DNA of 64,000 nucleotides from Candidatus Poribacteria bacterium. GTDB taxonomy: Bacteria > Poribacteria > WGA-4E > WGA-3G. A program made the position numbers and the translations under genes. Shown here piece by piece: positions 1 to 64,000 of the stretch (position 1 is its first letter; each line of letters starts with the position of its first letter). Location of the stretch: the NCBI GenBank assembly GCA_965217715.1, contig OZ244563.1, positions 405,116 through 469,115 on the forward strand, read 5' to 3'. The notes beneath the pieces are model-generated. The model ran no database searches. It saw only the letters and a list, made by a program, of their open reading frames with translations, and had not been told where the DNA came from.

Positions 1-351
1 ATACCCATTCGGTTTCAGCACACGGCACATCTCAGCCACAACGCGGTGCGGGTCTCGGACATGCTCCAGCACCGCCTCAGAGATAACCGCATCAAAAACG
101 TTATCTGCAAACGGCAGAGAGTGTCCATCCGCCACAACATCCACAGCGGGGGTCTCCTCAATCTCAAGGTTAATCACATTCGGGGCACGGCGATGCATTC
201 CCGAACCCAGGTCTAAAACCTGTGCCTCTGGTCCCAGTTCTCGGAGAACTCGTTTAACAGCACGATTCCAACGCGGCGCTGGATACGGGCATCCCATCAG
301 AGGTGCTAACAATCTGTTTTGCCGTAATCGGCGTTTTATCCGTTCAACCAT
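1..351 (-). CDS. class I SAM-dependent methyltransferase (N-terminal part; 3' end runs off the window edge)
   Basis: Minus-strand ATG at 351 translates to MVERIKRRLRQNRLLAPLMG...VLDLGSGMHRRAPNVINLEIEE...ADGHSLPFADNVFDAVISEAVLEHVRDPHRVVAEMCRVLKPNGY. It has the LDLGSG motif I and a Methyltransf_11-like acidic loop plus 'VLEH...RVLKPNG' motifs. It is absent from the ORF track because it is truncated by the window start. Confidence 0.65.
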   Translation of the reverse strand, partial: MVERIKRRLRQNRLLAPLMGCPYPAPRWNRAVKRVLRELGPEAQVLDLGSGMHRRAPNVINLEIEETPAVDVVADGHSLPFADNVFDAVISEAVLEHVRDPHRVVAEMCRVLKPNGY

Positions 352-424
352 TTCTCTTGTTGGAGGGGTTTACAACCCCGATTTCTTGATTTGGCGTTGA
401 TTCGTAAATCCTGGTTCAGACTGC

Positions 425-455
425 AATAAAAAACGGGGTCAGAACTCTGACCCCG
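425..455 (-). terminator. rho-independent terminator downstream of the dsRBD gene
   Basis: On the minus strand a 9-bp GC-rich stem (CGGGGTCAG / CTGACCCCG, 5-nt loop) is followed by TTTTTT. It lies directly after the stop of the 470..1012 gene. Confidence 0.7.
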
Positions 456-469
456 CCATAGCCGATTAT

Positions 470-1012
470 TTAGACATCAGGTATATCAGGAAACTTTATA
501 TTCGCTTCATCCGCTGCCTGCGCTATATCTCTAACAATTAGCATCGTCAACTGCGCCAACTTCCGTGAAAATTCAGCATCAGAAAGCCCGCGGTATCGTG
601 ATGGTTGCGATGTACTGAGCCGTTCATTTGCAATCACCATTGCGCTTGTAACAAGCGGTAACGCAACATCAAGCGGTTCATCGGACGTTAGTATTTCAAC
701 CGGTTCGGGAAATATATCGTCTTCCGTATCAGTTTCACCCACCAACAAACGTTCACGGTTTTCAGAAATTGTATCAAGCACCTGTTTCGCAGCGAATTGG
801 TGAGCCCCTTTCTTCGCACCCGGTATCGGATCAACCGTTTCGTGAACCCGATCACCGTAGTAGACCGTTACCTTCCAACTCGGCGCGTCTGGTGTGCCGA
901 GTTGTATTTCAGTAAACCGTGGTTGGCTCAACCCGCGTTCTTGGCAATATTGAATTAAAAGTCCTTTATAGTTTCCATCAGGTTCGGCAACATCAACATC
1001 CCCAACAAGCAT
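470..1012 (-). CDS. double-stranded RNA-binding domain (dsRBD) protein
   Basis: The N-terminal 70 aa 'GNYKGLLIQYCQERGLSQPRFTEI...GDRVHETVDPIPGAKKGAHQFAAKQVLDTI' match the dsRBM alpha-beta-beta-beta-alpha pattern with its KK-x-A-x-x-AA helix. Start taken at the ATG at 1012; a TTG at 1018 is also possible. It sits immediately downstream of rpsU. Confidence 0.6.
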   Translation of the reverse strand: MLVGDVDVAEPDGNYKGLLIQYCQERGLSQPRFTEIQLGTPDAPSWKVTVYYGDRVHETVDPIPGAKKGAHQFAAKQVLDTISENRERLLVGETDTEDDIFPEPVEILTSDEPLDVALPLVTSAMVIANERLSTSQPSRYRGLSDAEFSRKLAQLTMLIVRDIAQAADEANIKFPDIPDV

Positions 1013-1036
1013 ATACAACTACCTCCCGGAGCAGCA

Positions 1037-1258
1037 CTATCTACCGTTATCGTAGCGTGGGCGATACTCCATCGTGCGCGGTTTCACTTTCCGCTGACGC
1101 TTCAACTCGATTCTGCGGCGTTTTTCGCTCGGTTTTTCATAAAAACTCCGCTTCTTAATTTCGGTGACAACACCCGCCTTACCACACATCTTTTTAAAAC
1201 GAGCGAGCGCCCTATCAAAGGATTCGCCTGAATCAACCGTAACTTCAACTTGAACCAT
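1037..1258 (-). CDS. rpsU: 30S ribosomal protein S21
   Basis: The 73-aa product MVQVEVTVDSGESFDRALARFKKMCGKAGVVTEIKKRSFYEKPSEKRRRIELKRQRK aligns with S21 over its full length (FD-AL-RFK...GV....R-FYEKP-E-RR). Confidence 0.9.
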   Translation of the reverse strand: MVQVEVTVDSGESFDRALARFKKMCGKAGVVTEIKKRSFYEKPSEKRRRIELKRQRKVKPRTMEYRPRYDNGR

Positions 1259-1349
1259 GTTTACAATCCTCCTTAGGTAAAATTACTATAGTAGTATATC
1301 ATATCTCAGCGTAGATGTCAACTTTTTTTGGCTATCAGTTCCCTCTTCC

Positions 1350-1414
1350 TGTAGGAGCGAGCTCCAGCTCGCGACCATGTCAAAATGTTGAGAAAAACAC
1401 GAATACTGAACTAC
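1350..1414. repeat. variant copy of the palindromic repeat arm (GCGAGCT/AGCTCGC hairpin) plus a conserved 40-bp tail; second copy at 22342..22405
   Basis: TGTAGGAGCGAGCTCCAGCTCGCGACCATGTCAAAATGTTGAGAAAAACACGAATACTGAACTAC is about 85% identical to 22342..22405. The hairpin stem differs by compensatory changes (GCGAGCT..AGCTCGC versus GCGACC..GGTCGC). Confidence 0.7.
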
Positions 1415-1436
1415 TTTTGGCTATCAGTTCTATTCT

Positions 1437-1560
1437 TGTGGGAGGGGTTCTCTATTGTGGGAGGGGTTCTCTATTGTGGGAGGGGTTCTCTATTGTGGGA
1501 GGGGTTCTCTATTGTGGGAGGGGTTCTCTATTGTGGGAGGGTTCTCTATTGTGGGAGGGG
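1437..1560. repeat. tandem repeat, 20-bp unit TTGTGGGAGGGGTTCTCTAT in about 6 copies, ending in a GGGGTTTGTAACCCC hairpin
   Basis: Read directly in the sequence. The last unit degenerates into 'gggaggggtttgtaaccccgattt', a motif also present at 359..385 and 62624..62650. The flanking 'ttttggctatcagttc' is duplicated at 1324 and 1418. Confidence 0.85.
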
Positions 1561-1584
1561 TTTGTAACCCCGATTTACCAACAA

Positions 1585-1620
1585 CGTGTTTGTAGTCGCG
1601 CAATTCATTGCGCCTCTTAT
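1585..1620 (+). repeat. family-2 hairpin repeat GTTTGTAGTCGCGCAATTCATTGCGCCTCTTA
   Basis: It has a GCGCAAT-TC-ATTGCGC 7-bp stem. Related copies sit at 11741, 32971, 44115 and 63583, all in the same orientation. Confidence 0.75.
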
Positions 1621-1768
1621 ATTTTCCGGGCGTACTCCATAGGTTGGGTGAGCGAAACCCAACTCTTCTTGCAGTTAACGCATTGTAGTTCCAACAACTG
1701 ATAACCGACTGCCAATTCCACCTTGACAAAACCGACAAATTTCGCTATCATAAACCGCACAATAACCG

Positions 1769-5474: not shown

Positions 5475-5567
5475 ATAGTTAATAACGTATATAATTATTT
5501 AGTCGGGTTTACAAAAATCAAACAAAACCCGTAATACGTTAATAACCCATTAGGAGGAATTTTAGAT

Positions 5568-5858: not shown

Positions 5859-5866
5859 ATAAGTAA

Positions 5867-7504
<1,638 letters not shown>

Positions 7505-8826: not shown

Positions 8827-8844
8827 TATACCAATTCTAATAAA

Positions 8845-9492
8845 TTATATCTCATTTGCGACTTTCGTTAAATAACGATAATTTGTTATACTTTCAATAG
8901 TGGTTTTAGTGTAATTTCTTAATATATCGGTCAGTTTGTCCTGCATCTCTTCTATTGAAGCAAACACATTTTGAAACAACTTTGCTTTGATGTCTTGCCA
9001 TAGTCTTTCAATAGGGTTCAACTCCGGACTATAAGGTGGCAGAAAAAGTAAGACCACATTGTCAGGGATTTGCAGTGATTTCGCTTGATGAAAACGCCCA
9101 TTATCAAGCACAAGGATATTCAGAGACGCAGGATAAACCTTAGCAAACTCATCAAGAAATATTTGGAAACAGGCACTATTGAGCCAGGGCATTTCAAGGA
9201 AAAAACTTTCTCCCGTTATTGGTTCCACAGCACCATATAGATAAAAGTTCTCATAAGTATAACTGATTTTGGCAATCGGTTTGACACCGGGCAAGGTAAT
9301 ACACCGATATGAAAAAGGATGAAGACCAAATCTTGACTCATCTTCGCAAAAAAGGCGGACATTTTCAAACGCACAATCTTTCTCCGAAATCGCTGTCTTG
9401 ACTGTTTCAGGGAAGTCTAACTTGAACGTCTCACACGCTTTTTCGTTTTTTTTATATGGCTCTTGCGGGGCACTTTGAGTTTTGCTTTCCAT
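8845..9492 (-). CDS. IS630-family transposase, DDE catalytic part (orfB)
   Basis: DDE_3-like 'LNILVLDNGRFHQAK...LLFLPPYSPELNPIERLWQDIK' is a DD(34)E signature. It overlaps orfA by 76 nt in another frame, consistent with programmed frameshifting. Confidence 0.8.
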   Translation of the reverse strand: MESKTQSAPQEPYKKNEKACETFKLDFPETVKTAISEKDCAFENVRLFCEDESRFGLHPFSYRCITLPGVKPIAKISYTYENFYLYGAVEPITGESFFLEMPWLNSACFQIFLDEFAKVYPASLNILVLDNGRFHQAKSLQIPDNVVLLFLPPYSPELNPIERLWQDIKAKLFQNVFASIEEMQDKLTDILRNYTKTTIESITNYRYLTKVANEI

Positions 9493-9914
9493 CTATACCG
9501 AACCAACGCGTGAACTGCTTTATAGTTCATTTTGACATCAAAAGTTTCTTCAATATAATCTATTATCTGTTGATAACTGGAAAAACCCTCAGGTTTATTG
9601 AGTTCTGCTCGCAACATTTCTTGTTGTGCTTCGGTAAGCTGAGCTGGACGCCCGGGAGAATATTTCCGTGTCAAAAGCGCATCAAGTCCATCAGAGGCAT
9701 AAGTTTGAAACCAATGACCAATCGTTTTCCGATCAACACCTATCATCGACGCGATTTGCTTGCGAGTTAGAGCCTGACCGCTGCGAAATAGTAAAAGGGC
9801 TGTCAACCTTTGTTTTTGATAACCTATGGATGTTTTTCTCAACATTTTTTTCAACTCGGCAACACTTTCTGTTATCTGTGCGGGTTTTAACTTCATTGAT
9901 ACTAATCCTATCAA
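9417..9914 (-). CDS. IS630-family transposase, N-terminal HTH part (orfA)
   Basis: 'LTRKQIASMIGVDRKTIGHWFQTYASDGLDAL' is a helix-turn-helix, with a second winged-helix segment after it, as in IS630 orfA. Confidence 0.75.
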   Translation of the reverse strand: MIGLVSMKLKPAQITESVAELKKMLRKTSIGYQKQRLTALLLFRSGQALTRKQIASMIGVDRKTIGHWFQTYASDGLDALLTRKYSPGRPAQLTEAQQEMLRAELNKPEGFSSYQQIIDYIEETFDVKMNYKAVHALVRYRWKAKLKVPRKSHIKKTKKRVRRSS

Positions 9915-10085
9915 CTATAAATTTGTGATAAAATATAGCAGAAAAGAAAAAATATTAAAAGCGAAAATATTAAATAGAAATGGTATAACTATAGTTTGGA
10001 CAATTTCTTTCTGTTTCCTGTTGAGTCCTCAAGCATTCTTAATTTTCTTTGAGTTTTGTCCGGCATCGTAACTCGTAGAAAAACA

Positions 10086-10260
10086 TATTGAGCAGCCCCA
10101 GCGGGGCGGAATGTTTATAGCAATGGTGAACAATCCATATTGAGCCCCAGCGGGGCGAAATGTGTCTAAAATAGAGTTTCTTCCAATCACACAACTCGTG
10201 TTCACATACCACCCCTACGGGGTTCAAGAGGGCGTTTCCTCATATCTATAAACATATCGT
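10086..10260. repeat. family-3 composite repeat with ATGTTTATAG / CTATAAACAT inverted termini and GC hairpins (GCCCCAGCGGGGC x2, CCCCTACGGGG, GTCCCTACGGGAC)
   Basis: Direct repeat 'catattgagc(ag)ccccagcggggcg(g)aatgt' x2. A related copy at 36540..36700 has 'ggcggtatgtttatagcaaacggtg' and '...ctataaacatatcgttcctacggaactcaagag'. Confidence 0.65.
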
Positions 10261-10490
10261 CCCTACGGGACTAAAAATGCACTTTTGAATGATCTTGGTT
10301 CTTAATAGTATCAATGTCCTTTGGGAATTCACTATGAACAAGCACTTAAACAAAGTCTAAAACTGTCCAAACTTTAGTATAGTCTTATAAGAACGGGAGT
10401 TTTATTCAGAACGTTGAGATACACTCTTATGAAATTCTTAGGTGATGGCACGAGGAAGATATCTCCTCGCACCCATCCTACTCATGATCC

Positions 10491-11612: not shown

Positions 11613-11740
11613 TTTGAAATCTCCATATTTGCCGCTACCATGCTATTTTCAGCATGTGCTGCGATTTGGCTAACTTACGTTCACTGTTTATTTTTTATAG
11701 TAAAATCTAAAAATACCTTTACATTTTCTTAAGGTTAGCG

Positions 11741-11775
11741 GCGTTTGTAGTCGCGCAATTCATTGCGCCTCTTAC
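11741..11775 (+). repeat. family-2 hairpin repeat (GCGTTTGTAGTCGCGCAATTCATTGCGCCTCTTAC)
   Basis: Near-identical to 1585..1620 and 63583..63617. The upstream 'aaatctaaaaataccttta' is also shared with 63548 and 32925. Confidence 0.75.
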
Positions 11776-12273
11776 ATTTTTAGTATGTTTGAAATCCACA
11801 TAAGAACAGAATGTAAATATAATTATGGATTTCACTATAAACAGTGAAAATTAGCCACATGTGTATTTGTTGTGTTTATTTTTCTAATGCTGATATTTTA
11901 ACTTCGGTAATTTACACTCAAATCTATTCATAGCGACACGTTTCGTTAGGACGTTGATGATTTTTTTAAACATATTCAGACAAATTTAGTAGATTACCTT
12001 ACATTATTTGTAAGCAACTATCAACATATTGCAAACGATGTGCAATTATTGTGCCAATTGTGTTCACTTATGGAAGAAAATGGCTCATTATACGTTGAAA
12101 CATTGGGTTTTTAAGGGAAAATATATATTACTTCATATTTTTTGATTGAAGCCGCCAAAAATTACGAGTTTGGGACTGTTTCTCCACTAAATTTAATTTG
12201 GTTTTCATTCTTATATGTGGTATCATTTAAAGAGAAAACATTACTATTCACGAGTCACTATAGGAGGTTTTTA

Positions 12274-12794: not shown

Positions 12795-12835
12795 TTATCA
12801 TATAGTAGAATATAAAAATAAGTTTACACATCTTT

Positions 12836-12895
12836 TGTAGGAGCGATCTCCGAATCGCGACCTTTTGTGAATGTCGGGAATCGGAGTTCCCTCCC
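12836..12895. repeat. family-1 nested-palindrome element (arm GCGAT type, spacer, arm GGGAA type)
   Basis: TGTAGGAGCGATCTCCGAATCGCGAC-cttttgtgaat-GTCGGGAATCGGAGTTCCCTCC. Each arm folds as a 5-bp stem (GCGAT/ATCGC or GGGAA/TTCCC) around CTCCGA. The upstream 'ataagtttacac' is shared with copy 22949. Confidence 0.85.
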
Positions 12896-12965
12896 GCTGA
12901 ATGCCAAAAGCGCATTTGGCGTTGATTTGGCCAAATGCCAAAAGTGCATTTGGCGTTGATTCACA
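12896..12965. repeat. tandem 35-bp hairpin modules (AATGCCAAAAGCGCATTTGGCGTTGATTTGGC, 2 units) abutting the family-1 element
   Basis: Each unit carries an AATGC-N6-GCATT stem. The same modules occur at 59032..59122 and 63751..63850, with compensatory stem variants (CATGC..GCATG, GAATGC..GCATTC). Confidence 0.8.
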
Positions 12966-13154
12966 GTTCGAAAGTGTGAAAGTAATGCTAAAATCTACTA
13001 TAACATGTTTGTGTCGTCCCTTAAAAAAGTGCCTTAGAAAACATAAATTCTGAGGGGATCGGACACATCGCTAAACATAAATTGTTTGAAGTGGACAATT
13101 TTGTTTCTGTATCTTGACAATCCCTATTAGATATGGTATAATTGTCTAAAGGGC

Positions 13155-22250: not shown

Positions 22251-22341
22251 CAGCGATTACCACATATAAATACCTGCCACTCAGCAATGCAGAATAATCC
22301 AATTCTCCAGTCATTTTTTCTTTTTCACAAAAACATCTTTT

Positions 22342-22405
22342 TGTAGGAGCGACCTCCTGGTCGCGATATGACCAAAATGCTGAGAAAAACTGAAAACTGA
22401 ATTAC
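22342..22405. repeat. variant family-1 arm plus conserved tail (paralog of 1350..1414)
   Basis: TGTAGGAGCGACCTCCTGGTCGCGATATGACCAAAATGCTGAGAAAAACTGAAAACTGAATTAC. The stem GCGACC/GGTCGC is a compensatory variant of GCGAGCT/AGCTCGC. Confidence 0.7.
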
Positions 22406-22626: not shown

Positions 22627-22948
22627 TCGCTTAGGGAAACGCCCAACCTACCGCGTGAAGGTATCTGTGATTACGTTCTGACAAAATTAGGTAAACCATT
22701 AAATCTGACTTTTGGAGGAATAAAATAAACAGTGTATCTTACTTCAACTATCCTATCTCCATTATCCTTTTGCAAACATGATTTTGCCATGAATTGATGC
22801 TTTTACAAAAAAAGCTAAACTTTTTCTGGTGAAACGTATATATTAAGTATAACAGGTGATCACCATGTTATTTTATAGTTTGAAACGATTAACTTTTCTC
22901 GTTATCTTGCTTATATAGTGAAATATACAAATAAGTTTACACTCCTTC

Positions 22949-23014
22949 TGTAGGAGCGATCTCCGAATCGCGACTGCACGCCTTGATAGTCGGGAATCGG
23001 AGTTCCCTCCTACA
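22949..23014. repeat. family-1 nested-palindrome element (GCGAT arm first)
   Basis: TGTAGGAGCGATCTCCGAATCGCGAC-tgcacgccttgata-GTCGGGAATCGGAGTTCCCTCCTACA. Confidence 0.85.
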
Positions 23015-23065
23015 CCTACAAAGTGTCCAAGTAATTCTAAAATCCACTATAAAAGGAAGTAACCG

Positions 23066-25723: not shown

Positions 25724-25772
25724 ATGCACATACGGCATTTAGCGGTTTGTCAAAAGTTCAGGATTAAATTAA

Positions 25773-32793: not shown

Positions 32794-32970
32794 CAATGTT
32801 TATTGTTATATGATAGTATTGTAACGGAGAAGCAAAAAGTAGGTTTACGTTTAGACAGAAAAACATTTGACATCCAAAAGAAAACCTGTTATAATTATTA
32901 TTTCTTTTTTTACTGGGAAATCTAAATTATACCGTTTCTAATTGATCGCTTTTCATTAACAACAAAAAAC

Positions 32971-33005
32971 GCGTTTAATCGCAATTCATTGCGCCTCGGA
33001 CATTC
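32971..33005 (+). repeat. family-2 hairpin repeat, variant (GCGTTTAATCGCAATTCATTGCGCCTCGGACATT)
   Basis: Shares GCAATTCATTGCGCCTC with the other copies and CTCGGACATT with copy 44115. Confidence 0.6.
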
Positions 33006-33097
33006 TTCAGCTCTGCTTGAACCGATAATTTCACAATGAAGTCTCATCTTTTAGAAATGGTATTAGAATCAGCGGATATGGGTACTCGGAGGCAATT

Positions 33098-35194: not shown

Positions 35195-35245
35195 GAGAGA
35201 TTGAAACTATGGTAGAGATTAGAATTAACTCTACATTCTTGAACT

Positions 35246-35310
35246 GTAGGAGGGAACTCCGATTCCCGACTGCTCCTAAGTTCGGTCGCGATTCGGAGAT
35301 CGCTCCTACA
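35246..35310. repeat. family-1 nested-palindrome element (GGGAA arm first) just downstream of thrC
   Basis: TGTAGGAGGGAACTCCGATTCCCGAC-tgctcctaagttcg-GTCGCGATTCGGAGATCGCTCCTACA. Confidence 0.85.
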
Positions 35311-35398
35311 GAGGAAATGTAGAATTATTTCTATAATCCACTATAAGTAGTGTCTCCATGGGTGCGTCAAACAAACGCACCCATGGAAATCGGTAATT

Positions 35399-36193: not shown

Positions 36194-36330
36194 TATGGTA
36201 GATTATTGAATTAATTAGACGTATTTATTTGTAGGAGGGAACTCCGATTCCCGACTATCAGTGAGTTTCGTCGCGATTCGGAGATCGCTCCTACAAGTGA
36301 AGTGTATAATTATTTCCATATTTCACCATA
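36194..36330. mobile_element. MITE-like element (~137 bp) carrying a family-1 palindrome core between imperfect TATGGTA... terminal inverted repeats
   Basis: TATGGTAGATTATTGAATTAATTAGACGTATTTAT-[core 36230..36295]-GTGAAGTGTATAATTATTTCCATATTTCACCATA. The left and right flanks are imperfect inverted repeats (TATGGTAGATTATTGAATTAATTA versus TATGGTGAAATATGGAAATAATTA). Near-identical copies at 36846..36982 and 42294..42430, and a half copy at 63851..63891. Confidence 0.75.
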
Positions 36331-36539
36331 ACAACCGTTATTTAGATTATACACTATTTCACAGAAAAGTTGCAAGGAATAATTATTGTAAGGTGATTTC
36401 AACCATAACAGAGAGAATTCATACCTGTAACGACTCCAATCTTATGCAAATTAACATGCTTCCAATTTATAGGTGTGGTTAGAAACCGTATCTATAAGCG
36501 TCAATTTAAGGATTTTAATTCTACTTTTTGGATATATGT

Positions 36540-36700
36540 ATAGCCTCGTAGAGGCGGTATGTTTATAGCAAACGGTGTCAGTCCTTCTTGAGCTCCGTAG
36601 GAGCGGTATGTGTATCCAATTGCGTCTCTATAAACATATCGTTCCTACGGAACTCAAGAGAAAGGTTAACGTTTTTTATAAACATATCGTTTCCGTCAAA
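36540..36700. repeat. family-3 repeat copy (ATGTTTATAG ... CTATAAACATATCGTTCCTACGGAAC), duplicated tail
   Basis: Related to 10086..10260. It also contains 'tggtgtggttagaaaccg(c/t)atcta' at 36473 and 36788, the inverse complement of 'ggtagatgcggtttcctaaccgcatc' at 43896. Confidence 0.6.
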
Positions 36701-36845
36701 TGCCTGATGTGCATTCGACGTTGATTCACGGAACTCAAGATGTAAAAATCGGGCTTAGAAAGCCCCCTACAAGAAAGACTATATGCCTATGGTGTGGTTA
36801 GAAACCGCATCTACCGTCTGGTAAATAGGATGAATACCGTTAATT

Positions 36846-36982
36846 TATGGTACGTTATTGAATTAATTAGACGTATTTATTTGTAGGAGGGAACTCCGAT
36901 TCCCGACTAAGATTGGCATTAGTCGCGATTCGGAGATCGCTCCTACAGGTGAAGTGTATAATTATTTCCATATTTCACCATA
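36846..36982. mobile_element. MITE-like element, copy 2 (family-1 core 36882..36947)
   Basis: Same termini and core as 36194..36330. The ~500 bp between the two copies is filled with other repeat families and no credible ORF. Confidence 0.75.
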
Positions 36983-42259: not shown

Positions 42260-42293
42260 TTTTTGCCTCCTTATAGATAATATGCGTTATAGA

Positions 42294-42430
42294 TATGGTA
42301 GATTATTGATTTAATTAGACGTATTTATCTGTAGGAGGGAACTCCGATTCCCGACTATCAGTGAAGTTCGTCGCGATTCGGAGATCGCTCCTACAGGTGA
42401 GGTGTATAATAATTTCCATATTTCACCATA
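42294..42430. mobile_element. MITE-like element, copy 3, inserted in the 180-bp spacer between czcC-like and czcB-like genes
   Basis: TATGGTAGATTATTGATTTAATTAGACGTATTTAT-[core 42330..42395]-GTGAGGTGTATAATAATTTCCATATTTCACCATA. Confidence 0.75.
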
Positions 42431-42441
42431 ATACGCGTTAA

Positions 42442-43686: not shown

Positions 43687-43847
43687 TCGTTTTTTGCACC
43701 TCACAAGTTAGATTACATAAAAGTGGTTGGCAATGTTTAAAATGCATAAATAGTGTATAGGATTACCCGCGAAAATCACACTATACGGGTTACATAATAC
43801 CATTTCAAAAAAATAACTACTCTTAACCTAAGTTGCCACCTATGTAG

Positions 43848-44095
43848 CACAAACTTTATGAAGATTAAGAAAATATTTCGGTAATTCTAATTCTTCCCAA
43901 ACCCGGTAGATGCGGTTTCCTAACCGCATCGGAGTTTCTCCAAAATTACCGAATTAATAAATTAATCTTCATTTAGTTTGTGCATATTAGTCCGCAAACT
44001 GAAAGTTTGCGCTACAATATTTCACCATTAACGAACTGTTCTCTATTAAAAATGGTGTCTGTGTGCCTAAAATCTTATAGGTAGCAACTTGGGTT
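43848..44095. repeat. pair of ~21-bp inverted repeats (AACCTAAGTTGCCACCTAT / ATAGGTAGCAACTTGGGTT) flanking a ~200-bp repeat-rich segment
   Basis: 19 of 21 complementarity. The interior carries GGTAGATGCGGTTTCCTAACCGCATC (family shared with 36473 and 36788). Confidence 0.4.
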
Positions 44096-44114
44096 ACTCT
44101 TAAAGAAATAGACC

Positions 44115-44150
44115 GTTCGTAGTCGCGCAATTCATTGTGCCTCGGACATT
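44115..44150 (+). repeat. family-2 hairpin repeat, variant (CGTTCGTAGTCGCGCAATTCATTGTGCCTCGGACATT)
   Basis: One stem mismatch (ATTGTGC). It carries the CTCGGACATT tail shared with 32971. Confidence 0.65.
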
Positions 44151-44296
44151 TCTTTTCAAAAGAGAAAATAATTTATAGAATTGGTATAACAGTATTTTAA
44201 GGTATGGATTTAAGATAATACAAAGCCATCTTAAAATCGCTGTAAATTTATGCAGAATTCAAGATAACAGGAGTACTTATAATAGCGGGGGAAGGA

Positions 44297-44764
44297 TTAA
44301 ATGCGGAGGGCAACAGTACGAAGTGAAACGAGCGTATGGTTAATTAAAGGTGGAACGAGCAAAAGATGGGATGGAGTAAAAACATTTGATAAATGAGTCT
44401 CAAGTGTAATTAGAGAGGCTGCGTGAATGGATTTGTCTGTTGACAAATTTTCTTCAACAGCAACAATGTATAATTCACTGTTTAGTGAAGCAAAAATGGG
44501 TAGGTCAACACATTCGCCGCAGTGGTCATCATGCGCAGCAGGTATCTCTGGGTAAGCCAAATCAGGGGAAGGTACGTCTGCACAACAACCGTTGACAGAA
44601 AATTCAAATTCAACGTGCCCATCTTCACCAATGCACAGAACATACTGAGACAGCTGCATCGGAACTATGGCAAAATAGATAAATAGCCAAATTATAGGTG
44701 TAACAGTTCTGTTTTTTTGGGAGAAAAGAAAAACCATGTGTTGTATGCCTAATTTGCCGAACAT
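44297..44764 (-). CDS. hypothetical Cys-rich protein with N-terminal hydrophobic segment
   Basis: ORF-track 44297..44875 trimmed to the first Met downstream of the family-1 repeat. The upstream 37 codons are a read-through of the palindromic element, giving the same 'SDLRIATS..DSRESEFPPT' pseudo-peptide as ORF 48745..48951. It contains CC-x-D...HC-x-EC motifs. Confidence 0.4.
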   Translation of the reverse strand: MFGKLGIQHMVFLFSQKNRTVTPIIWLFIYFAIVPMQLSQYVLCIGEDGHVEFEFSVNGCCADVPSPDLAYPEIPAAHDDHCGECVDLPIFASLNSELYIVAVEENLSTDKSIHAASLITLETHLSNVFTPSHLLLVPPLINHTLVSLRTVALRI

Positions 44765-44785
44765 TTTGAGTTGTAGGTTTTGAGT

Positions 44786-44852
44786 TGTAGGAGGGAACTC
44801 CGATTCCCGACTATCAGTGAGGCTCGTCGCGATTCGGAGATCGCTCTTACAG
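44786..44852. repeat. family-1 nested-palindrome element plus conserved flank GAAAATGTTCTTCTTTAATTTCAAAG
   Basis: TGTAGGAGGGAACTCCGATTCCCGAC-tatcagtgaggctc-GTCGCGATTCGGAGATCGCTCTTACA. The same flank occurs at 59189 and, inverted, at 48745..48768. Confidence 0.85.
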
Positions 44853-45270
44853 AAAATGTTCTTCTTTAATTTCAAAGTTTACCATATTATGAAGTATACA
44901 CAATTTTCTAACACAATGTCAAGAAGAAAATTTAAAAGTAATCGTTACGTGTGATTCTTCCAAAACAATGCAATTGTTTTGAATAATTAGGTTAAATGTT
45001 CAAATTATAGACAGCAATGTCCATATTATAACTACATTTTCCATTATTGTGGCATAAATCGCTATGATTCCAAGCTCAACCGTTTATTACAATTGGCATC
45101 GTATTTGCTCATATTTCATTATGAGGAAAATCAGTAACGAAATCACTACCTTTGCTTGCACACAAATTCCTTGAAAATTGCATTAAAAAATGCTAAAATC
45201 TAAATGATACGTTCTATCTATTATGTGTAAGTTTTAGTCAAACCTATATGAAGGTAAAGAGGATATACAA

Positions 45271-46339: not shown

Positions 46340-48748
46340 ATGAAAAGATTTTTGGCTTTTGCAATCGGAATGTTTTTTGTGGCTGCTATTCTCGGAAATG
46401 CAGACGCACAACTCCCAGATTTTCAGATTGATTCTGAAAGTATTATCTTCTCTAATCCGAATCCTGTTGAAGGCGAGGAGATTACGATTTGGGTTGAGAT
46501 AAAAAACGTTGGAACTGAGACTCCCACGAGGAACGAAGACTTGGTCGTTGATCTTTTTGAAGGTGATCCAACGACAAAGCCACTTCAGATTTTATGCAAT
46601 GATGTCATTTTGGATTTGAAACCCGGAAAAACTGACCGTGTGGAGATACAGTGGCAGCCCCCTGCCGGTAGAACTGAGATTTATGCTATCGTCAACCCAA
46701 CAGGTGATAAACATATTGTAGAATCTAACAATGTGAATAACGAAGCATCTGCTGTGATAGTCGCTACCCAGATAACTTTTCCTGAAGTAACGCCAGAACA
46801 AATTCAAGCGTCAATAGATCAGGGTATTGCGTGGATAGAAGCACAACAAGGAAAAAGTAGTCGCACTTGTTTACAATGTGGAGTAGAAAACCAAATGATT
46901 TTAACCTGTGTTATCTGCGGCGCGAGTCTGAAAGGTTTAGCAGAAAATTTTATACCAGGTTCCGTCTGGAATTTTGGTGAAGACCCACTACAGGAAACAT
47001 CATTGGCATTACAGGCGTTGCTTGCCGCAGGACGCACCCCATCTGACCTTTCTGTGCAGAAAGGGCTTGCGGACCTTCTTGAACAGGATTGGAATACGCT
47101 TGATGTTTACCAATATGCTGTACTCATTCCGGTCTTGGTTGTAATACGGAACCCGGAAAATCGGGAACGCGCCCAATTCGCTGTGAATCAGCTCGTAAAA
47201 AAGCAACTTCCTATCCCCGGTAGTGAATTCGCTGATGTGAGGGATGATGGTGGTTGGGGTTATGGTTACTCAGCGGATGGTGCACACATGAACATGGTTA
47301 TCTACGCGCTTTATGCTGCAAAGCAGTGGGGTCTTGAAATTCCACAAGATACATGGACACGTGCAGAGAGGTGGATTCGTGGAAATCAGACTGACACGGG
47401 CGGATGGCTCTATAATTTGGTTGAAGAAGGGTCACTGTGGGGAATTGGCGTTTACGGCAGCATGACCGCTACTGGTTTGTGGGCACTTCGTGCATGTGGT
47501 GTTTCCATTGATGATCCTCAGGTACGAAAAGGTATTCGCTGGCTAACAAAGCACTGGTCACTTACACGAAATCCAGGATCGACTTCTTGGCTTTATTATT
47601 ATCTTCTTTCCCTGCAACGTTTTAGTGATATTCCGCCAAAGGAAGAGACATTGGCTGGTCATGACTGGTACAATGAAATTGCAAGCATGATGGTCTCAGA
47701 ACAAAAAGCGGACGGTAGTTGGGATAGTCCTGGGGCGGCGACAGATTTTATGTCTACTTGTTTTGCAGTCATGTTTTTGAGTCGCGCACTTGTTCGTCCG
47801 ACAGCACCAAATATTGGTGTGGTACCACAAAGCTTACGTTTTTCACCGCCATCTCCACGCGTTGGCGAAGCAGTGAAACTGAGTGCGACACTTAGAAATA
47901 CTGGCACTCCTTTTGATAAAACGCTGGAAGCCAAGTTTTTTGCTAATAACACTGAAGTCCAAACAGCGGAGGTATTCTGGACATCCACCCTCAATGAGTC
48001 TGTTGTTTCAGTTGACTGGGTACCAAAACAAGAAGGTGAAACAGAAATTTCTATTCATGTGGACTTTGATGATTTTGATAAAAGTGACAATTCAGATTCA
48101 GTACTTCTCAATGTTTATCCAAAATCTACGTCCGCAACAGACACACAGTTGGCAAAGATCAAGAAAATATCGGAAAATGTCTTTCAGATGGGTGTTGTTG
48201 TAGTTGATATAGAAAAAAAGGAAATTATTGTTCCAGGCGAAGTTAACATTGCAAGTGATGATGCAATAATCGAATTCTTTGCATGTGGGACACTCGGGCC
48301 ATCCCATGAGAGCATCTTGATGCTTGAGGCGGAACCAATTCATCTTTTTACTGCCCTCGGTTTACTGGACCTTGAATACGGCATGAATCTTGAAGTCCAA
48401 GGTGATCCACGCGATCCTGAGGGTTCTCACGTACAAATATGGGTTGAATGGAAACAGGGTAAAAAAGTTATCTCACATCCAGCACGCGAGTTGGTGTGGA
48501 ATACAATGTCTGGGCAACCGATGCAAAAAACACATTGGGTTTTTACCGGCGGACGACTCAGGAAAAACCAATTAACCTCACAACTCACGCATAATATCAT
48601 TGCAGTATACCGTGATCCTGATTCACTAATCAACAACCCATTATCCGGTGCCACTGATGATCGCACTTATCTTGTCAATACCGATGTAGTCCCACCTAAA
48701 GGCACAAAAGTTAAGGTTATTATTCGTCCCATATATGGTGAACTTTGA
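46340..48748 (+). CDS. secreted multidomain protein: CARDB, prenyltransferase/terpenoid-cyclase-like alpha-alpha toroid repeats, CARDB, C-terminal unknown domain
   Basis: Signal peptide. CARDB-like 'ESIIFSNPNPVEGEEITIWVEIKNVGT' and 'SPPSPRVGEAVKLSATLRNTGTP'. Toroid repeats 'DDGGWGYGYSADGAHMNMVIYALYA', 'DTGGWLY' and 'QKADGSWDSPG'. An internal 'CLQCGVENQMILTCVICG' CxxC...CxxC knuckle. Confidence 0.6.
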   Translation: MKRFLAFAIGMFFVAAILGNADAQLPDFQIDSESIIFSNPNPVEGEEITIWVEIKNVGTETPTRNEDLVVDLFEGDPTTKPLQILCNDVILDLKPGKTDRVEIQWQPPAGRTEIYAIVNPTGDKHIVESNNVNNEASAVIVATQITFPEVTPEQIQASIDQGIAWIEAQQGKSSRTCLQCGVENQMILTCVICGASLKGLAENFIPGSVWNFGEDPLQETSLALQALLAAGRTPSDLSVQKGLADLLEQDWNTLDVYQYAVLIPVLVVIRNPENRERAQFAVNQLVKKQLPIPGSEFADVRDDGGWGYGYSADGAHMNMVIYALYAAKQWGLEIPQDTWTRAERWIRGNQTDTGGWLYNLVEEGSLWGIGVYGSMTATGLWALRACGVSIDDPQVRKGIRWLTKHWSLTRNPGSTSWLYYYLLSLQRFSDIPPKEETLAGHDWYNEIASMMVSEQKADGSWDSPGAATDFMSTCFAVMFLSRALVRPTAPNIGVVPQSLRFSPPSPRVGEAVKLSATLRNTGTPFDKTLEAKFFANNTEVQTAEVFWTSTLNESVVSVDWVPKQEGETEISIHVDFDDFDKSDNSDSVLLNVYPKSTSATDTQLAKIKKISENVFQMGVVVVDIEKKEIIVPGEVNIASDDAIIEFFACGTLGPSHESILMLEAEPIHLFTALGLLDLEYGMNLEVQGDPRDPEGSHVQIWVEWKQGKKVISHPARELVWNTMSGQPMQKTHWVFTGGRLRKNQLTSQLTHNIIAVYRDPDSLINNPLSGATDDRTYLVNTDVVPPKGTKVKVIIRPIYGEL

Positions 48749-48768
48749 AATTAAAGAGACACTTTTTC

Positions 48769-48834
48769 TGTAGGAGCGATCTCCGAATCGCGACGAAACG
48801 CATTGATAGTCGGGAATCGGAGTTCCCTCCTACA
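48769..48834. repeat. family-1 nested-palindrome element beginning at the stop codon of the upstream gene
   Basis: TGTAGGAGCGATCTCCGAATCGCGAC-gaaacgcattgata-GTCGGGAATCGGAGTTCCCTCCTACA. The inverted flank 'tgaaattaaagagacacttttt' overlaps the TGA at 48746..48748. Confidence 0.85.
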
Positions 48835-48937
48835 GTTCAGGACTGTAGCGTTAATTGTAATCTTTACCATAAATCTTCAGCCACAATTTATGTGGTAGGT
48901 CAACCACACCTGAATTTCAACTCATGGAAAGAAAACA

Positions 48938-58478: not shown

Positions 58479-58713
58479 GGTGGATACTGACAGTAACTCA
58501 TCCACTCCTGCATTGATTTTTGTGTTATCAAGCAGTTCCAATGGTTTGATGTTGAGGGGATTAATTGTTAATACAAAAGTATTAAGAAAAAGTCACAATA
58601 TTAAACGGATGTTTTTTCTATAGTGTTTACAATTTTAACAGATTATGGGTGTTGTTGTCAAATTTGGCTGATAAGTTATAACTGTGTAGTGCTTTGTCAA
58701 CATATTATTGTCC

Positions 58714-58789
58714 GTCGCGATTCGGAGATCGCTCCTACTTCTGGAACGTTTTTGGTAGGAGGGAACTCCGATTCCCGACTACTTTCAAG
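58714..58789. repeat. family-1 arms in inverted (inside-out) order: arm GCGAT type, 14-nt spacer, arm GGGAA type
   Basis: GTCGCGATTCGGAGATCGCTCCTAC-ttctggaacgtttt-TGGTAGGAGGGAACTCCGATTCCCGAC. The upstream flank 'caacatattattgtcc' is repeated at 58994. Confidence 0.75.
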
Positions 58790-58867
58790 CCCCATCAATT
58801 ATTACTTGACGAGGCAGTAGGTGTTTAAGTTAGAGGTAGGGTTAAAATTTATTTGGAAGGATTTCAT

Positions 58868-58897
58868 TAAAAAGAAAGGCGCGCCGTGAAGCGCGCC
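58868..58897 (-). terminator. intrinsic terminator (minus strand) with GGCGCGC/GCGCGCC stem
   Basis: On the minus strand GGCGCGC-ttcacg-GCGCGCC is followed by TTTCTTTTT. Confidence 0.55.
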
Positions 58898-59009
58898 AAA
58901 ATACTTCAGTCGAGTTAATGTTGTTATTTTCCGCCAGATGTTCAGAGGGCCCATAGAAACAATCAATCTTAAAAACGAGGATTAGTGCTTCGTCAACATA
59001 TTATTGTCC

Positions 59010-59188
59010 GTCGCGATTCGGAGATCGCTCCCGCTGAATGCGCGTATGGCATTCAGCCAAATCAACGCAGCATGCGCTTTTGGCATGCTGCCAAATCAAC
59101 GCCAAATGCGCGCATGGCATTTGTCGGGAGGGAACTTCGATTCCCGACTATCAGTCAGGTTCGTCGCGATTCGGAGATCGCTCTTACA
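59010..59188. repeat. composite: family-1 arm, 2.5 tandem 35-bp hairpin modules (inverted orientation), arm variant, spacer, arm
   Basis: GTCGCGATTCGGAGATCGCTCC / cgctgaatgcgcgtatggcattcagccaaatcaacgc agcatgcgcttttggcatgctgccaaatcaacgc caaatgcgcgcatggcatttg / TCGGGAGGGAACTTCGATTCCCGAC-tatcagtcaggttc-GTCGCGATTCGGAGATCGCTCTTACA, then the GAAAATGTGCCTCTTTAATTTCAAAG flank. Confidence 0.8.
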
Positions 59189-59294
59189 GAAAATGTGCCT
59201 CTTTAATTTCAAAGCTCACCAATGCTGAATTGTAGTGCGTAGCAGCTTATGTGATAGCGGAAATACTGTTCCACTTTTCACTTTGTATGTGCTG

Positions 59295-59570
59295 CTATGT
59301 ACTACTGACATTAGGTATAGTTTCAGAATCATCACTACTTTTTTCAGATGCGTCCGGTTGTTCTGTGTCCGTAAGGTCTATTTGGGGCGTTTCTACTTGT
59401 TCTGTTTCTAAAGGCTTTTCCATGTGCTGTATTTCCACGCCGGGGCCAGTATCCACGGATTCGAGGTAAGCCATTTGGTTTTGGTACCACAAAAAGCATC
59501 CAAGTGTAAAAATTAGTATGAAACAAGTTCCACCGAGAATCCAATTTTCTATGGAAAATTCTTTTAACAT
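59295..59570 (-). CDS. small single-pass membrane protein with acidic C-terminal tail (paralog A)
   Basis: 91 aa, MLKEFSIENWILGGTCFILIFTLGCFLWYQNQMAYLES.., a good GGAGAAAAAG RBS. About 60% identical to 62764..63093 over the N-terminal 60 aa. Confidence 0.55.
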   Translation of the reverse strand: MLKEFSIENWILGGTCFILIFTLGCFLWYQNQMAYLESVDTGPGVEIQHMEKPLETEQVETPQIDLTDTEQPDASEKSSDDSETIPNVSST

Positions 59571-59956
59571 CTTTTTCTCCTATTCTATTCATATCTTCAG
59601 GTGGTATCCACTGGGTTATAATATCTTTGTTTAGTAATCTCGGTTAATCATTAGACAAGTGAGGAAACATTGTGTTCATGAAAACTGAATTACCTGATTA
59701 TTGGAATTTCCAGCCGATTCCTCTCCCATTTGAACCTTCTGTTATTAAAGACGCATATGCAAGCAAAAAGATTGCACTTTTTCATAAAAAAATGCATTTT
59801 TTCGGTAAAAAGTGATTTTTTATGCGGTTTTTTCAAGAAATATGTGGAAAGTAGGTTTCCGAAAAATAAAAAGACACGCATTAAAGCGCGCCTAAATGAT
59901 CATGAGATTTTATTTGCCTTTTATAGTGGATTTTACAATTAACTGGACATCTGATA

Positions 59957-60021
59957 TGTAGGAGGGAACTCCGATTCCCGACTATTAGTGGTTTCGTCGC
60001 GATTCGGAGATCGCTCCTACA
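59957..60021. repeat. family-1 nested-palindrome element
   Basis: TGTAGGAGGGAACTCCGATTCCCGAC-tattagtggtttc-GTCGCGATTCGGAGATCGCTCCTACA. Confidence 0.85.
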
Positions 60022-60102
60022 GAATATATGTGAACTTATTTACATAATTTACTATAAAAGCCATGGTGTTCAGGAACTTCAGCTAATAGAGGCGAATATA
60101 CG

Positions 60103-62322: not shown

Positions 62323-62763
62323 CTGCCTGCGGGTATGCCGAATTATACCTTTTTATAGTAAAGTTGTAATTATTGAAATACGTCTTATAGCACACTTACA
62401 AAACGCTAAATCAATACCGAGTGCCATACGGTATTACGGCGCCTATTGACAATGGAAAGTGCACCTCCATAGGCAAATATCCATATATTCGCAGATTGTA
62501 ATTAAGTGATAATATAATTTTTGGGGAGGATTTTGCTAATAGAATAGCATAAAAATGCTTATCTGTCAATGAAAATACCAGAAATTTCAGAGCCATTCAA
62601 TTGTCGAGAAGCACTCTTATAGGAGGGGTTTGTAAACCCGATTTAAAAACAAAAGCGTTAAATGTGAATGTCGGACGCACATTCACCAAGCGCAATTTAT
62701 TGCGCTTCTTTCTACCTTGCAAATATTCTGACTTTTTTCAGCGGCTGCAATTTCATTGGAACG

Positions 62764-63093
62764 CTATTTTATGACTGCTAATGGAACAGTCACTAAAACG
62801 TTTACAGTGTTCTGCTGTGCGCTACTGTCACTGACACCAGGGTTCCTGTCAACTTTGTTTCTCACATCAGAACTATTTTTTTCAGATGCATCCGGTAACT
62901 CTATTTGTGGCGTTTCTATCTGCCTAATATCTGAAGGCTTCTCCAAGTGCTGTCTTTCCAGTTCGGTGTCAGTATTGTGTGGTTGAAGATATTCCATCTC
63001 ATTTTGGAACCACAAAAAGCATCCAAGTGTGAAAATTAGGAGGAAGACGGTGCCACCGAGAATCCAGTTGTCTATGGAAATTTCTTTATACAT
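62764..63093 (-). CDS. small single-pass membrane protein with acidic C-terminal tail (paralog B)
   Basis: 109 aa, MYKEISIDNWILGGTVFLLIFTLGCFLWFQNEMEYLQP.., AGGAGAAAAAATG RBS. The upstream ~450 bp is also duplicated with the paralog-A upstream region. Confidence 0.55.
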   Translation of the reverse strand: MYKEISIDNWILGGTVFLLIFTLGCFLWFQNEMEYLQPHNTDTELERQHLEKPSDIRQIETPQIELPDASEKNSSDVRNKVDRNPGVSDSSAQQNTVNVLVTVPLAVIK

Positions 63094-63582
63094 TTTTTCT
63101 CCTATCCAATTTCATCTACATGCGCGGCATTCATTGGATAATGAACCCAGTATTTTAATTGCTTTAGTTAACGGTTAGATGCGTGAACAAACTTTATTTT
63201 CAGGTAAACTAAATCTTTTCGAATTTTTAGATACTTCAGTCGGTTTTCTACTTTGAAGAACTCCTTATGATTATAGACGCGTTTTTGAGGGCAAAAGGGT
63301 GCATTTTTTGAAAAAATATACATTTATTGGATGAACAGAAGGTTTTTTGTGTAATTTTCCCTGAGATGATCAAGGTGAGGGTTATAGCGGTTGTTGAAAA
63401 CGGTTTGCGAAGGATAGGGAGACATGCAGCGAAAGATTACCTCATGTGTGTTTGCAAAACTTATAGCAAAGTCCAAATATGTTGAGACTATATTTATTGA
63501 AACCAGACTCTGTTCTTACGAGTCATTCCAGTGTTTTTATAGTGAAATCTAAATTATCTTTACAGTTCTCTATAGATTTAAT

Positions 63583-63617
63583 GCGTTTGTAGTCGCGCAA
63601 TTCATTGCGCCTCTTCC
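63583..63617 (+). repeat. family-2 hairpin repeat (GCGTTTGTAGTCGCGCAATTCATTGCGCCTCTTCC)
   Basis: Near-identical to 1585 and 11741. It is preceded by 'gaaatctaaattatctttac', which is shared with those copies. Confidence 0.75.
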
Positions 63618-63728
63618 ATTACCGGTAGGCGAGGTTTCCTAACCTCGCTGGTGCAGAGTGTCCAATTAATTCCAAAATCTACTATAACACGCTAAATCCC
63701 TTATTAGGGACTTTTGAACCCATTGTTA

Positions 63729-63850
63729 GTCGGGAATCGGAGTTCCCTCCCGCCAAATGCCATGCGCGCATTTGGCGTTGATTTGGCTGAATGCCAAAAG
63801 CGCATTCAGCGTTGATTTGGCTGAATGCCAAAAGCACATTTGGCGTTGAT
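63729..63850. repeat. single family-1 arm (GGGAA type) followed by three tandem 35-bp hairpin modules
   Basis: GTCGGGAATCGGAGTTCCCTCC / cgccaaatgccatgcgcgcatttggcgttgatttggc tgaatgccaaaagcgcattcagcgttgatttggc tgaatgccaaaagcacatttggcgttgattcat. Confidence 0.8.
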
Positions 63851-63891
63851 TCATAAATAAATACGTCTAATTAATTCAATAATCTACCATA
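63851..63891. mobile_element. half MITE terminus (inverse complement of the TATGGTAGATTATTGAATTAATTAGACGTATTTAT end)
   Basis: AAATAAATACGTCTAATTAATTCAATAATCTACCATA directly abuts the tandem modules, which places the modules where the palindrome core sits in full copies. Confidence 0.6.
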
Positions 63892-64000
63892 AGTAGGAGT
63901 CGGTTGCAAAAAAGTTTTCAAAATCTGCACACTTAATATTATAGAGACGTATCTCTGTGTCTGTTCTATGTTATACTGTTTCTAATTGACAAATTGCCAT

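Follow-up and report, generated by a model that had tools for sequence, protein, structure and literature searches.

The intergenic DNA of a 64,000-nt stretch of a Candidatus Poribacteria chromosome (contig OZ244563.1, positions 405,116 to 469,115; G+C ~0.42), hereafter referred to as the window, contains many short structured repeats that we interpret, with a probability of roughly 0.6, as two layers of elements typical of the phylum: miniature inverted-repeat transposons (MITEs) inserting at TA dinucleotides, and small hairpins resembling the repetitive extragenic palindromes (REPs) of other bacteria. The genes of the window are ordinary chromosomal ones, encompassing groEL, mutS2, dnaG-rpoD, a resistance-nodulation-division (RND) efflux operon, genes for Omp85, TPR and PD40 proteins and three tRNAs, and its AcrB is 93-95% identical to annotated Poribacteria proteins. 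The repeats are known kinds of element, occurring in a phylum for which the literature searched yielded no description of REP, REP doublet forming hairpin (REPIN) or MITE systems.

A curated list of 29 repeat blocks covers 3,287 nt, which amounts to 5.1% of the window, or to 29% when set against the 11.3 kb of DNA between its genes, with a gene overlap of only 19 nt. This load was measured in the 64-kb window only, and the likening to palindromic-element loads of Neisseria or Rickettsia applies to this window alone. Self-BLAST and repeat finding identified 39 repeated stretches, part of them genic TPR paralogues, and 27 intergenic blocks with a total of 2.8 kb have counterparts in two or more of 111 unrelated loci from Poribacteria. 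The degenerate 25-nt core of repeat family 1, GTAGGAGSGAWCTCCGAWTCSCGAC, matches the window 23 times with up to three mismatches and has no match in any of 100 dinucleotide shuffles, in line with a preliminary description that had called this DNA saturated with structured repeats. Every family named there is present and was also found in other Poribacteria species, and family 1 does have the MITE and tandem-module derivatives reported. An Rfam scan of the window returned the three tRNAs at the gathering threshold and no family match for the repeats, a separate scan of 35150-37100 returned nothing at E <= 1, and the MITE sequence had no match in plasmid and phage collections. The repeats and the TPR and WD40 genes had pointed to a cyanobacterial origin, a reading that was rejected: the HIP1 octamer GCGATCGC is present once in the window, and both the core and the proteins map to Poribacteria.

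An exact scan with the degenerate core, taking one genome per species, returned at least 111 stretches from at least 52 assemblies. Among the matches listed, 51 of the 52 core-bearing assemblies are labelled Candidatus Poribacteria and one 'uncultured bacterium'; 55 of the loci listed make up a low-GC set, and the family-1 unit is conserved in genomes spanning G+C 0.37 to 0.56. Syntenic loci of sister species (L118, L119 and L120; 83-90% coding identity to the window) and a TARA scaffold syntenic to part of it (L126) were also available. Syntenic stretches of the three sister genomes were compared with the window and insertion sites classed as filled or empty. Two IMG/VR contigs labelled 'viral' (L121, 1659-1683; L122, 1105-1129; G+C ~0.50) carry one family-1 unit each, free of any MITE shell; they probably represent prophage, or Poribacteria DNA that was classified wrongly.

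The MITE layer is well supported. Alignment reveals a main shell common to 10 window copies, which reads TA/TRGTGAAATATA...ACAC, cargo, GT..AATTAATTCTAAAATCTACYA/TA. These elements have terminal inverted repeats of ~27 nt (TA, then TRGTGAAATAT...), no coding capacity and a size of 135-150 bp, clustering at 135-138 nt and longer where extra modules are present; a single-stranded copy folds much better than shuffled sequences (z = -4.95). TA bounds all complete copies in the window, and transposases of the IS630/Tc1-mariner type are characterised by insertion at TA and duplication of that dinucleotide. Four window copies are absent at the orthologous site in relatives: the MITE at 42294 is absent in L118, L119 and L120, that at 35208 is present in L119 and absent in L118 and L120, that at 22914 is absent at the same site in L126, and that at 48734 faces an exact empty site in L120 (CCCATA-TA-AATCTTCAG, versus CCCATA-TA-element-TA-AATCTTCAG in the window). 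The last insertion (window 48728-48748) struck the TA of a TAA stop codon and so altered a CARDB-domain gene, which now ends at a TGA inside the MITE with four additional residues (YGEL), giving 802 aa versus 798 aa in L120. Insertion of the MITEs at TA is directly observed, and the transposase responsible would be of the IS630/Tc1-mariner type.

Repeat content also differs between relatives in amount. In four genomes, the spacer downstream of AcrB has lengths of 883, 738, 198 and 585 nt, and its set of repeats differs from one genome to the next. Between 32 and 50 kb, the window has 23 units or terminal repeats, versus 4-7 in the syntenic 23-kb stretches of three relatives; the window's genome, either as a whole or in this region, is therefore more repeat-rich than theirs. 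The copies at 36194, 36846 and 42294 form a subfamily found only in the window within the sample examined; their mutual identity of 90-95%, against at most 80% to foreign copies, suggests a recent burst in this genome. The nearest relatives of the MITEs at 22914, 35208 and 59922 are 93-95% identical copies at non-orthologous sites in other species. This cross-species identity exceeds the 83-90% of coding sequence in the closest relatives, a pattern that may reflect conserved master copies, selection, or exchange among symbionts that live together. An apparent 10-nt target duplication at 42294 was rejected: the spacer in question, between the OEP and HlyD genes (42259-42293 and 42431-42445), is itself duplicated in tandem over 16 nt (TAACGCRTATTATCTA, minus strand), and the MITE sits at a TA inside the first copy of this duplication. 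In L119 the 16 nt occur once.

Support for the hairpin layer comes from a shared architecture, stem co-variation, sharp borders and a CT dinucleotide preceding the GTAG head. Units of families 1, 2, 4 and 5 (the last being the GGTAGATGCGG unit) all fold to one architecture of 24-28 nt, consisting of a GTAG or GTGG head, 0-2 free bases, a 5-9 bp stem, a 2-6 nt loop and a 3-nt tail. Examples are GTAG-GA-GGGAA-CTCCGA-TTCCC-GAC, GTAG-GA-GCGAT-CTCCGA-ATCGC-GAC, GTGG-GA-GGGGTT-TGT-AACCCC-GAT, GTAG-TC-GCGCAAT-TC-ATTGCGC-CTC and GTAG-ATGCGGTT-TCCT-AACCGCAT; family 3 and a 34-nt module are without the GTAG head. Scanning the window for GTAG or GTGG followed by a perfect hairpin yielded 31 instances in the 11.3 kb of intergenic DNA versus 7 in the 52.7 kb of genes. 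Stems co-vary strongly: although the core search pattern permitted 16 combinations at four stem positions, 169 of the 174 exact cores among the matches listed are complementary, the dominant stem variants in the same set being CGAT/ATCG (80), GGAA/TTCC (68) and GGAT/ATCC (20). Paralogues at 1351 and 22343 differ by compensatory stem changes, and the unit at 22343 differs from its L126 orthologue by a compensatory change that leaves the stem paired, L126 having two tandem units there. Two hairpins, near 36470 and 36790, depend on G-T pairs to form their stems.

Family-1 units occur alone, as doublets or in arrays. Among the matches listed, 30 of 32 inverted doublets pair two different stem variants; spacers are mostly 14 nt with the heads outward and mostly 16 nt with the heads inward. 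Direct arrays have a 38-40-nt period and one stem variant each. The 139 family-1 clusters of other genomes, again among the matches listed, include 71 lone units and 23 doublets that have no shell, 19 doublets enclosed by a full shell and 13 arrays, the counts without a shell being upper bounds because shell detection used terminal repeats derived from the window; in the window itself, 8 of 13 family-1 clusters sit in complete shells. Lone units have sharp 25-nt borders and flanks that are unrelated except for CT 5' of GTAG, with C at position -2 in 51 and T at position -1 in 63 of the 79 isolated units among the matches listed. At L002 2698-2877, L043 4080-4430 and L071 3230-3490, between 5 and 10 family-1 units follow one another head to tail with a period of 38-40 nt. 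These minisatellites could be taken for CRISPR arrays, a reading we rejected: their spacers are 13-15 nt long and self-similar, whereas CRISPR spacers are unique and at least ~26 nt long.

Shells and hairpins occur in different combinations. The main shell may enclose a family-1 doublet, a single family-2 hairpin or a family-2 plus a family-5 hairpin, and the same hairpin types are found in three different shells. In five genomes, at least seven copies of the 34-nt module, approximately CCGMCAAATGCC-AWACGC-GCATTTGG-CGTTGATT, occupy one junction, CTCC^TAC, of the family-1 head; the module is found inside the family-3 hairpin and beside family-2 and family-4 units as well. It ends in GTTGATT, containing TTGAT, which we take to be the target of ISDra2. 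A hairpin like the 34-nt module covers the last codons of a PD40-repeat gene (hairpin 25718-25751, gene 24569-25723), and L126 has at this site a version with other loop and stem letters. The preliminary description had counted at least four distinct families, all of which exist but not as separate entities, since families 1, 2, 4 and 5 share one architecture and shells swap cargo: the repeats are one mosaic system, of the kind of bacterial interspersed mosaic elements (BIMEs) or REPs plus MITEs.

The elements of the window are as follows.

354..420 (+): family-4 hairpin at 362-382, followed by a 34-nt module remnant
1344..1414 (+): ~70-nt element, hairpin GTAGGAGCGAGCTCCAGCTCGCGAC plus a conserved tail; paralogue of 22336-22405
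1436..1562 (+): tandem array of 19 nt x 6.7 (TTGTGGGAGGGGTTCTCTA), a repeated 5' half of the adjoining family-4 hairpin
1546..1625 (+): family-4 hairpin GTGGGAGGGGTTTGTAACCCCGAT, followed by a family-2 hairpin at 1592-1616
8827..9987 (-): IS630-family insertion sequence (IS), TA-flanked, with the transposase in two overlapping open reading frames (ORFs), 9417-9914 and 8845-9492
10094..10272 (+): family-3 composite, small hairpins joined to GGWATGTTTATAG, with two direct copies 49 nt apart and one inverted
11696..11839 (+): MITE, main shell (TATAGT...ACTATA), with one family-2 hairpin GTAGTCGCGCAATTCATTGCGCCTC at 11747-11771
12801..13002 (+): MITE, main shell, with a family-1 doublet at 12837-12861 (+) and 12873-12897 (-) and two 34-nt hairpin modules at 12896-12962, placed at CTCC^TAC
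22336..22405 (+): ~70-nt element, as at 1344..1414, between rpoD and tRNA-Met
22914..23051 (+): MITE, main shell, with a family-1 doublet; its end lies 14 nt 5' of the ATG of a sigma-factor gene
32928..33064 (+): MITE with IS630-type terminal repeats (TACCGTTTCTAATTGA ... TTTTAGAAATGGTA) and a decayed family-2 hairpin
35208..35345 (+): MITE with a family-1 doublet, between convergent genes
36194..36330 (+): MITE with a family-1 doublet, of one subfamily with the 36846 and 42294 copies
36470..36815 (+): mosaic block with two minus-strand GGTAGATGCGG-type hairpins (~36470 and ~36790), a family-3 composite at 36542-36690, a 34-nt module in a family-3 hairpin at 36700-36740 and the hairpin GTAGGGGGCTTTCTAAGCCCGAT at 36748-36770 (-)
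36846..36982 (+): MITE of the same subfamily, 92.7% identical to the 36194 copy
42294..42430 (+): MITE between the OEP and HlyD genes of the RND efflux operon
43847..43983 (+): third MITE type, 137 nt, with 40-nt terminal inverted repeats (83% complementary) on either side of the hairpin GGTAGATGCGGTTTCCTAACCGCATC
44095..44190 (+): half element with a family-2 hairpin at 44119-44143; its right end matches the IS630 terminal repeat
44764..44886 (+): MITE without a left terminal repeat; a 14-nt x2 duplication lies just before it
48734..48871 (+): MITE in the TAA stop codon of the CARDB-domain gene
58687..58783 (+): family-1 doublet with GTAG heads inward, 58714-58738 (-) and 58755-58779 (+), part of a ~139-nt element recurring in L054 and L087
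58983..59229 (+): mosaic block with a family-1 unit, three reversed 34-nt modules at 59032-59133, then a degenerate doublet plus a decayed terminal repeat
59922..60056 (+): MITE, main shell, with the family-1 doublet in the opposite order
62614..62652 (+): family-4 hairpin GGAGGGGTTTGTAAACCCGAT
63538..63686 (+): MITE, main shell, with a family-2 hairpin at 63589-63613 and a GGTAGGCGAGGTTTCCTAACCTCGC hairpin at 63623-63650
63715..63891 (+): truncated MITE with a family-1 unit at 63729-63753 (-), three 34-nt modules at 63752-63852 and a right terminal repeat

This catalogue refines several details of the preliminary description. The ATGTTTATAG/CTATAAACAT composites it mentioned are located at 10094-10272 and 36542-36690. 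Its three GGGGTTTGTAACCCC-type hairpins lie at 362-382, 1554-1574 and 62622-62642, but match that sequence exactly only at 1557; likewise, the GGTAGATGCGGTTTCC units are exact only at 43905, with variants at 63623 and, on the opposite strand, at ~36470 and ~36790. The tandem array given as 20 bp x6 at 1437 has a 19-nt period and 6.7 copies at 1436-1562, and the two spacers described as nothing but repeats contain 65% (36167-37049) and 51% (58542-59294) recognisable repeat. Some ORFs are indeed translations of repeats, such as 1315-1701, which has no Pfam hit, and several of 40-75 aa at 58985-59235 and 63682-63854. The long form of ORF 44297-44875 reads spuriously into a MITE, its homologues in relatives having 146-147 aa.

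Under the two-layer reading, a DDE transposase of IS630/Tc1-mariner type, supplied in trans, would cut and paste the MITEs into TA and duplicate the TA, while an HUH tyrosine transposase of the REP-associated tyrosine transposase (RAYT) type would recognise the hairpins on single-stranded DNA, requiring the GTAG head and cutting at the adjacent CT. Replication slippage may then yield the tandem arrays. A hairpin doublet inside a MITE shell would also be carried by the DDE transposase, which would explain why copies in this genome are mostly in MITE form. In E. coli, the RAYT requires GTAG next to the hairpin and cuts at CT (PMC3479197), and RAYT genes with GTAG hairpins on their flanks exist at a conserved chromosomal position in Poribacteria; for the window's hairpins the RAYT step is a proposal.

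Several observations weigh against this reading. The window and 110 of the 111 family-1 loci contain no RAYT (Y1 transposase), the exception being L057, where the RAYT at 5565-6140 scores 175.6 bits on the NCBIfam model REP_Tyr_transpos (NF047646; cut-off 80) and passes Pfam Y1_Tnp. The RAYTs of L057, L112-L117, L124 and L125 are flanked by another GTAG hairpin, GTAGGGYGSGCANNGCSCRCC, which is absent from the 55 low-GC loci, the window and L118-L120, and a cognate RAYT for the window's units may be missing from this clade. The terminal repeats of the window's IS630 element (8827-9987) do not match the main shell, and a full-length IS with main-shell ends was not found in ~1 Mb of Poribacteria DNA. 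Furthermore, the empty sites corresponding to the MITEs at 35208, 42294 and 22914 lie in diverged sequence and are consistent with TA duplication in length only. Since all but one of the family-1 loci are without RAYTs and the RAYTs inspected are flanked by the other hairpin, the pairing of a RAYT with the same unit that defines a REPtron was not found in the loci examined, and the units are classified here as REP-like in mechanism, not as a proven REPIN-RAYT system.

The GTAGGGYGSGCANNGCSCRCC hairpins beside the RAYTs have co-varying stems too. Poribacteria RAYTs are ~60% identical to cyanobacterial ones, and their homologues lie in a conserved neighbourhood (TPR, HD, RAYT, a 166-aa gene and a methyltransferase); three further RAYT loci either have the same REP type or, in the case of L123, are likely non-Poribacterial. 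In L117 (1057-3082), three tandem 193-aa RAYT copies and a partial fourth are separated by the same REP pair between each. As for the DDE transposase, the terminal repeats of the IS630 element match the MITE at 32928-33064 and the half-element end at 44190, and we rejected this IS as the partner of the main shell, its ends fitting the minor MITE type only. A tblastn search for further IS630 elements in the 111 loci found none, and widely spaced pairs of main-shell ends, not each of which was inspected, look like neighbouring MITEs rather than one long element. The IS630 element lies at the end of an hsdS fragment (8093-8875) retaining half a Methylase_S domain; the hsdS ORF runs 48 nt into the IS, which probably interrupted the gene.

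The closest known counterparts of the hairpins are the REPs and REPINs of Pseudomonas, which are accompanied by RAYTs (Bertels and Rainey 2011, PMC3116915; PMC3733652), and in particular the 'GTAG-1' format, in which GTAG is followed by an unpaired dinucleotide and the 3-nt tail is conserved (Di Nocera et al. 2013, PMC3733652). The Poribacteria units share with GTAG-1 REPs the 24-28-nt extragenic hairpin, the 5' GTAG (sometimes GTGG) and the free GA, but their tail is GAC or GAT, in contrast to GAA in Pseudomonas. The head and tail TGTAGGAGCG...CGCGA have nearly the same letters as what we take to be the Pseudomonas putida REP. Compensatory stem sub-families, inverted doublets, singletons, clusters, several families per genome and CT by the head are further points in common with REP/REPIN systems. 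Unlike in REPIN-RAYT systems, however, no RAYT flanked by family-1, -2, -4 or -5 units was found in the loci examined, Poribacteria RAYTs carrying the other GTAG hairpin; doublets join unlike variants (30/32) instead of like copies; and most doublets in this genome are enclosed in a TA-inserting MITE shell.

Similarity to E. coli BIMEs is found in the mosaic blocks, with a few hairpin types and linkers in fixed relative positions and a variable copy number. The sequences differ, the blocks here include transposon terminal repeats, and head-to-tail arrays (34-nt or 38-40-nt period) are frequent, whereas BIMEs alternate orientation. The shells resemble IS630/Tc1-mariner MITEs in size, terminal inverted repeats, TA duplication, non-coding nature and filled versus empty sites, and a TA-flanked IS630 element whose ends match one MITE type lies in the same window; the autonomous partner of the main shell was not found in the loci examined. 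Among bacterial MITEs, Nezha of Anabaena/Nostoc invites comparison (Zhou et al. 2008, summarised in PMC3184786), although the summary states neither its IS family nor its target. The elements are also comparable to the Correia elements of Neisseria, which are ~100-155 bp long, have terminal inverted repeats and TA duplication, abound between genes and can be co-transcribed with them, but there is no sequence similarity, the phylum is another one, and Correia elements carry promoter and IHF sites, not GTAG hairpin cargo. Elhai and colleagues reportedly described, in 2008, small dispersed repeats (SDRs) of Nostocaceae as hairpins of ~21-27 nt nested inside MITEs and elsewhere. The passage on SDRs in PMC3733652 presents them as without a conserved terminal tag, whereas the units described here carry GTAG, the comparison being one of descriptions only; the host lineages of the two have closely related RAYTs.

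A doubtful variant of the two-layer reading makes family 1 an orphan REP: in the low-GC clade, where no sign of a cognate RAYT system was found in the loci examined, the hairpin would persist and multiply because a fixed pair of unlike variants (GGAA/TTCC and CGAT/ATCG) was captured in a TA-inserting MITE and has since been riding the DDE transposase. In that case the almost constant joining of unlike variants would serve a function, perhaps avoiding a perfect palindrome or giving a two-part binding site. It is unlikely that there is a single layer only, with the hairpins as internal MITE sequence, free units as remnants of deletion or recombination and no tyrosine transposase at work. Such an origin fits the 8 of 13 window clusters in complete shells, the TA insertion of whole MITEs as the sole mobility directly shown, and family 1 without a linked RAYT in the loci examined; yet random deletion would leave ragged ends, whereas the 71 lone units without a shell (an upper bound) among the 139 foreign clusters have uniform borders with CT before GTAG, one shell carries different hairpins, and hairpin types occur in three shells.

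Selection by the host offers another explanation, in which the hairpins would be functional motifs (mRNA stabilisers, attenuators, or sites for nucleoid or topology proteins) kept up by selection and gene conversion, with mobility secondary. Such roles are known for REPs (PMC3479197), and the strong stem co-variation, the orthologous unit that keeps its pairing through a double change, the conservation of the unit over G+C 0.37 to 0.56, the higher identity of MITE copies than of coding sequence across species, and the 36470 and 36790 hairpins, whose need for G-T pairs hints at RNA, are all compatible with it. We nevertheless consider it improbable as the main cause: presence and absence vary freely at the same sites in close relatives, copies are found in divergent, tandem and convergent intergenic contexts, the hairpins have no following T-run and match no Rfam family, and the spread of the units is left without explanation. 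Highly improbable, in our view, is mobility by means other than a RAYT, such as an IS200/IS605-type TnpA or the template switching proposed for the SDRs of Nostocaceae. The 34-nt module at a single junction, CTCC^TAC, and inside the family-3 hairpin would be in keeping with it, as would the TTGAT in the end of that module and the nesting of small units in MITEs reported for Nostocaceae, but no IS200/IS605 TnpA or TnpB was seen in the window or loci, in a search that covered Y1 only, and the GTAG head with its adjacent CT fits RAYT rules specifically.

Additional features of the window are unconnected to the dispersed elements or merely adjoin them. A 185-aa ORF after dnaG (19964-20521) encodes sigma-70 region 2 only, and its DNA is 72-78% identical to part of rpoD (21189-21673), which lies 1.2 kb downstream; the matching stretches are the repeats D5 and D6. 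By sequence comparison this ORF is a truncated rpoD paralogue between dnaG and rpoD, and it is conserved, since L126 has the same gene called. A perfect 22-bp inverted repeat with an 8-nt loop (25773-25824) lies between genes and is not dispersed; L126 has it in the corresponding place, differing mostly in the loop, and a role as terminator or regulatory hairpin is possible. ORFs 59295-59570 and 62764-63093 are paralogues of 91 and 109 aa, with ~75% DNA identity over 208 nt, a hydrophobic N-terminal stretch and no Pfam hit, each adjoining repeat-rich spacers. ORF 26314-32796 (2,160 aa) has a sub-threshold SprA_N hit only and is conserved in L119 (2,154 aa) and L126 (2,149 aa). An in-frame 42-nt x 2 tandem duplication (95% matches) occupies 57871-57954 inside an Omp85-family gene (56130-58541).

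Poribacteria live as symbionts of sponges and have not been cultivated, single-cell and metagenome assemblies being the only source of their genomes. For genomes of this kind, dense palindromes are a hazard to short-read assembly, and a catalogue of the elements would remove spurious ORFs from annotations and explain altered gene ends, such as the replaced stop codon at 48746. The insertions would also provide fine-scale markers for typing symbiont strains across sponge hosts. For the evolution of REPs, the phylum represents a natural test of the persistence of REP-like hairpins with or without a tyrosine transposase.

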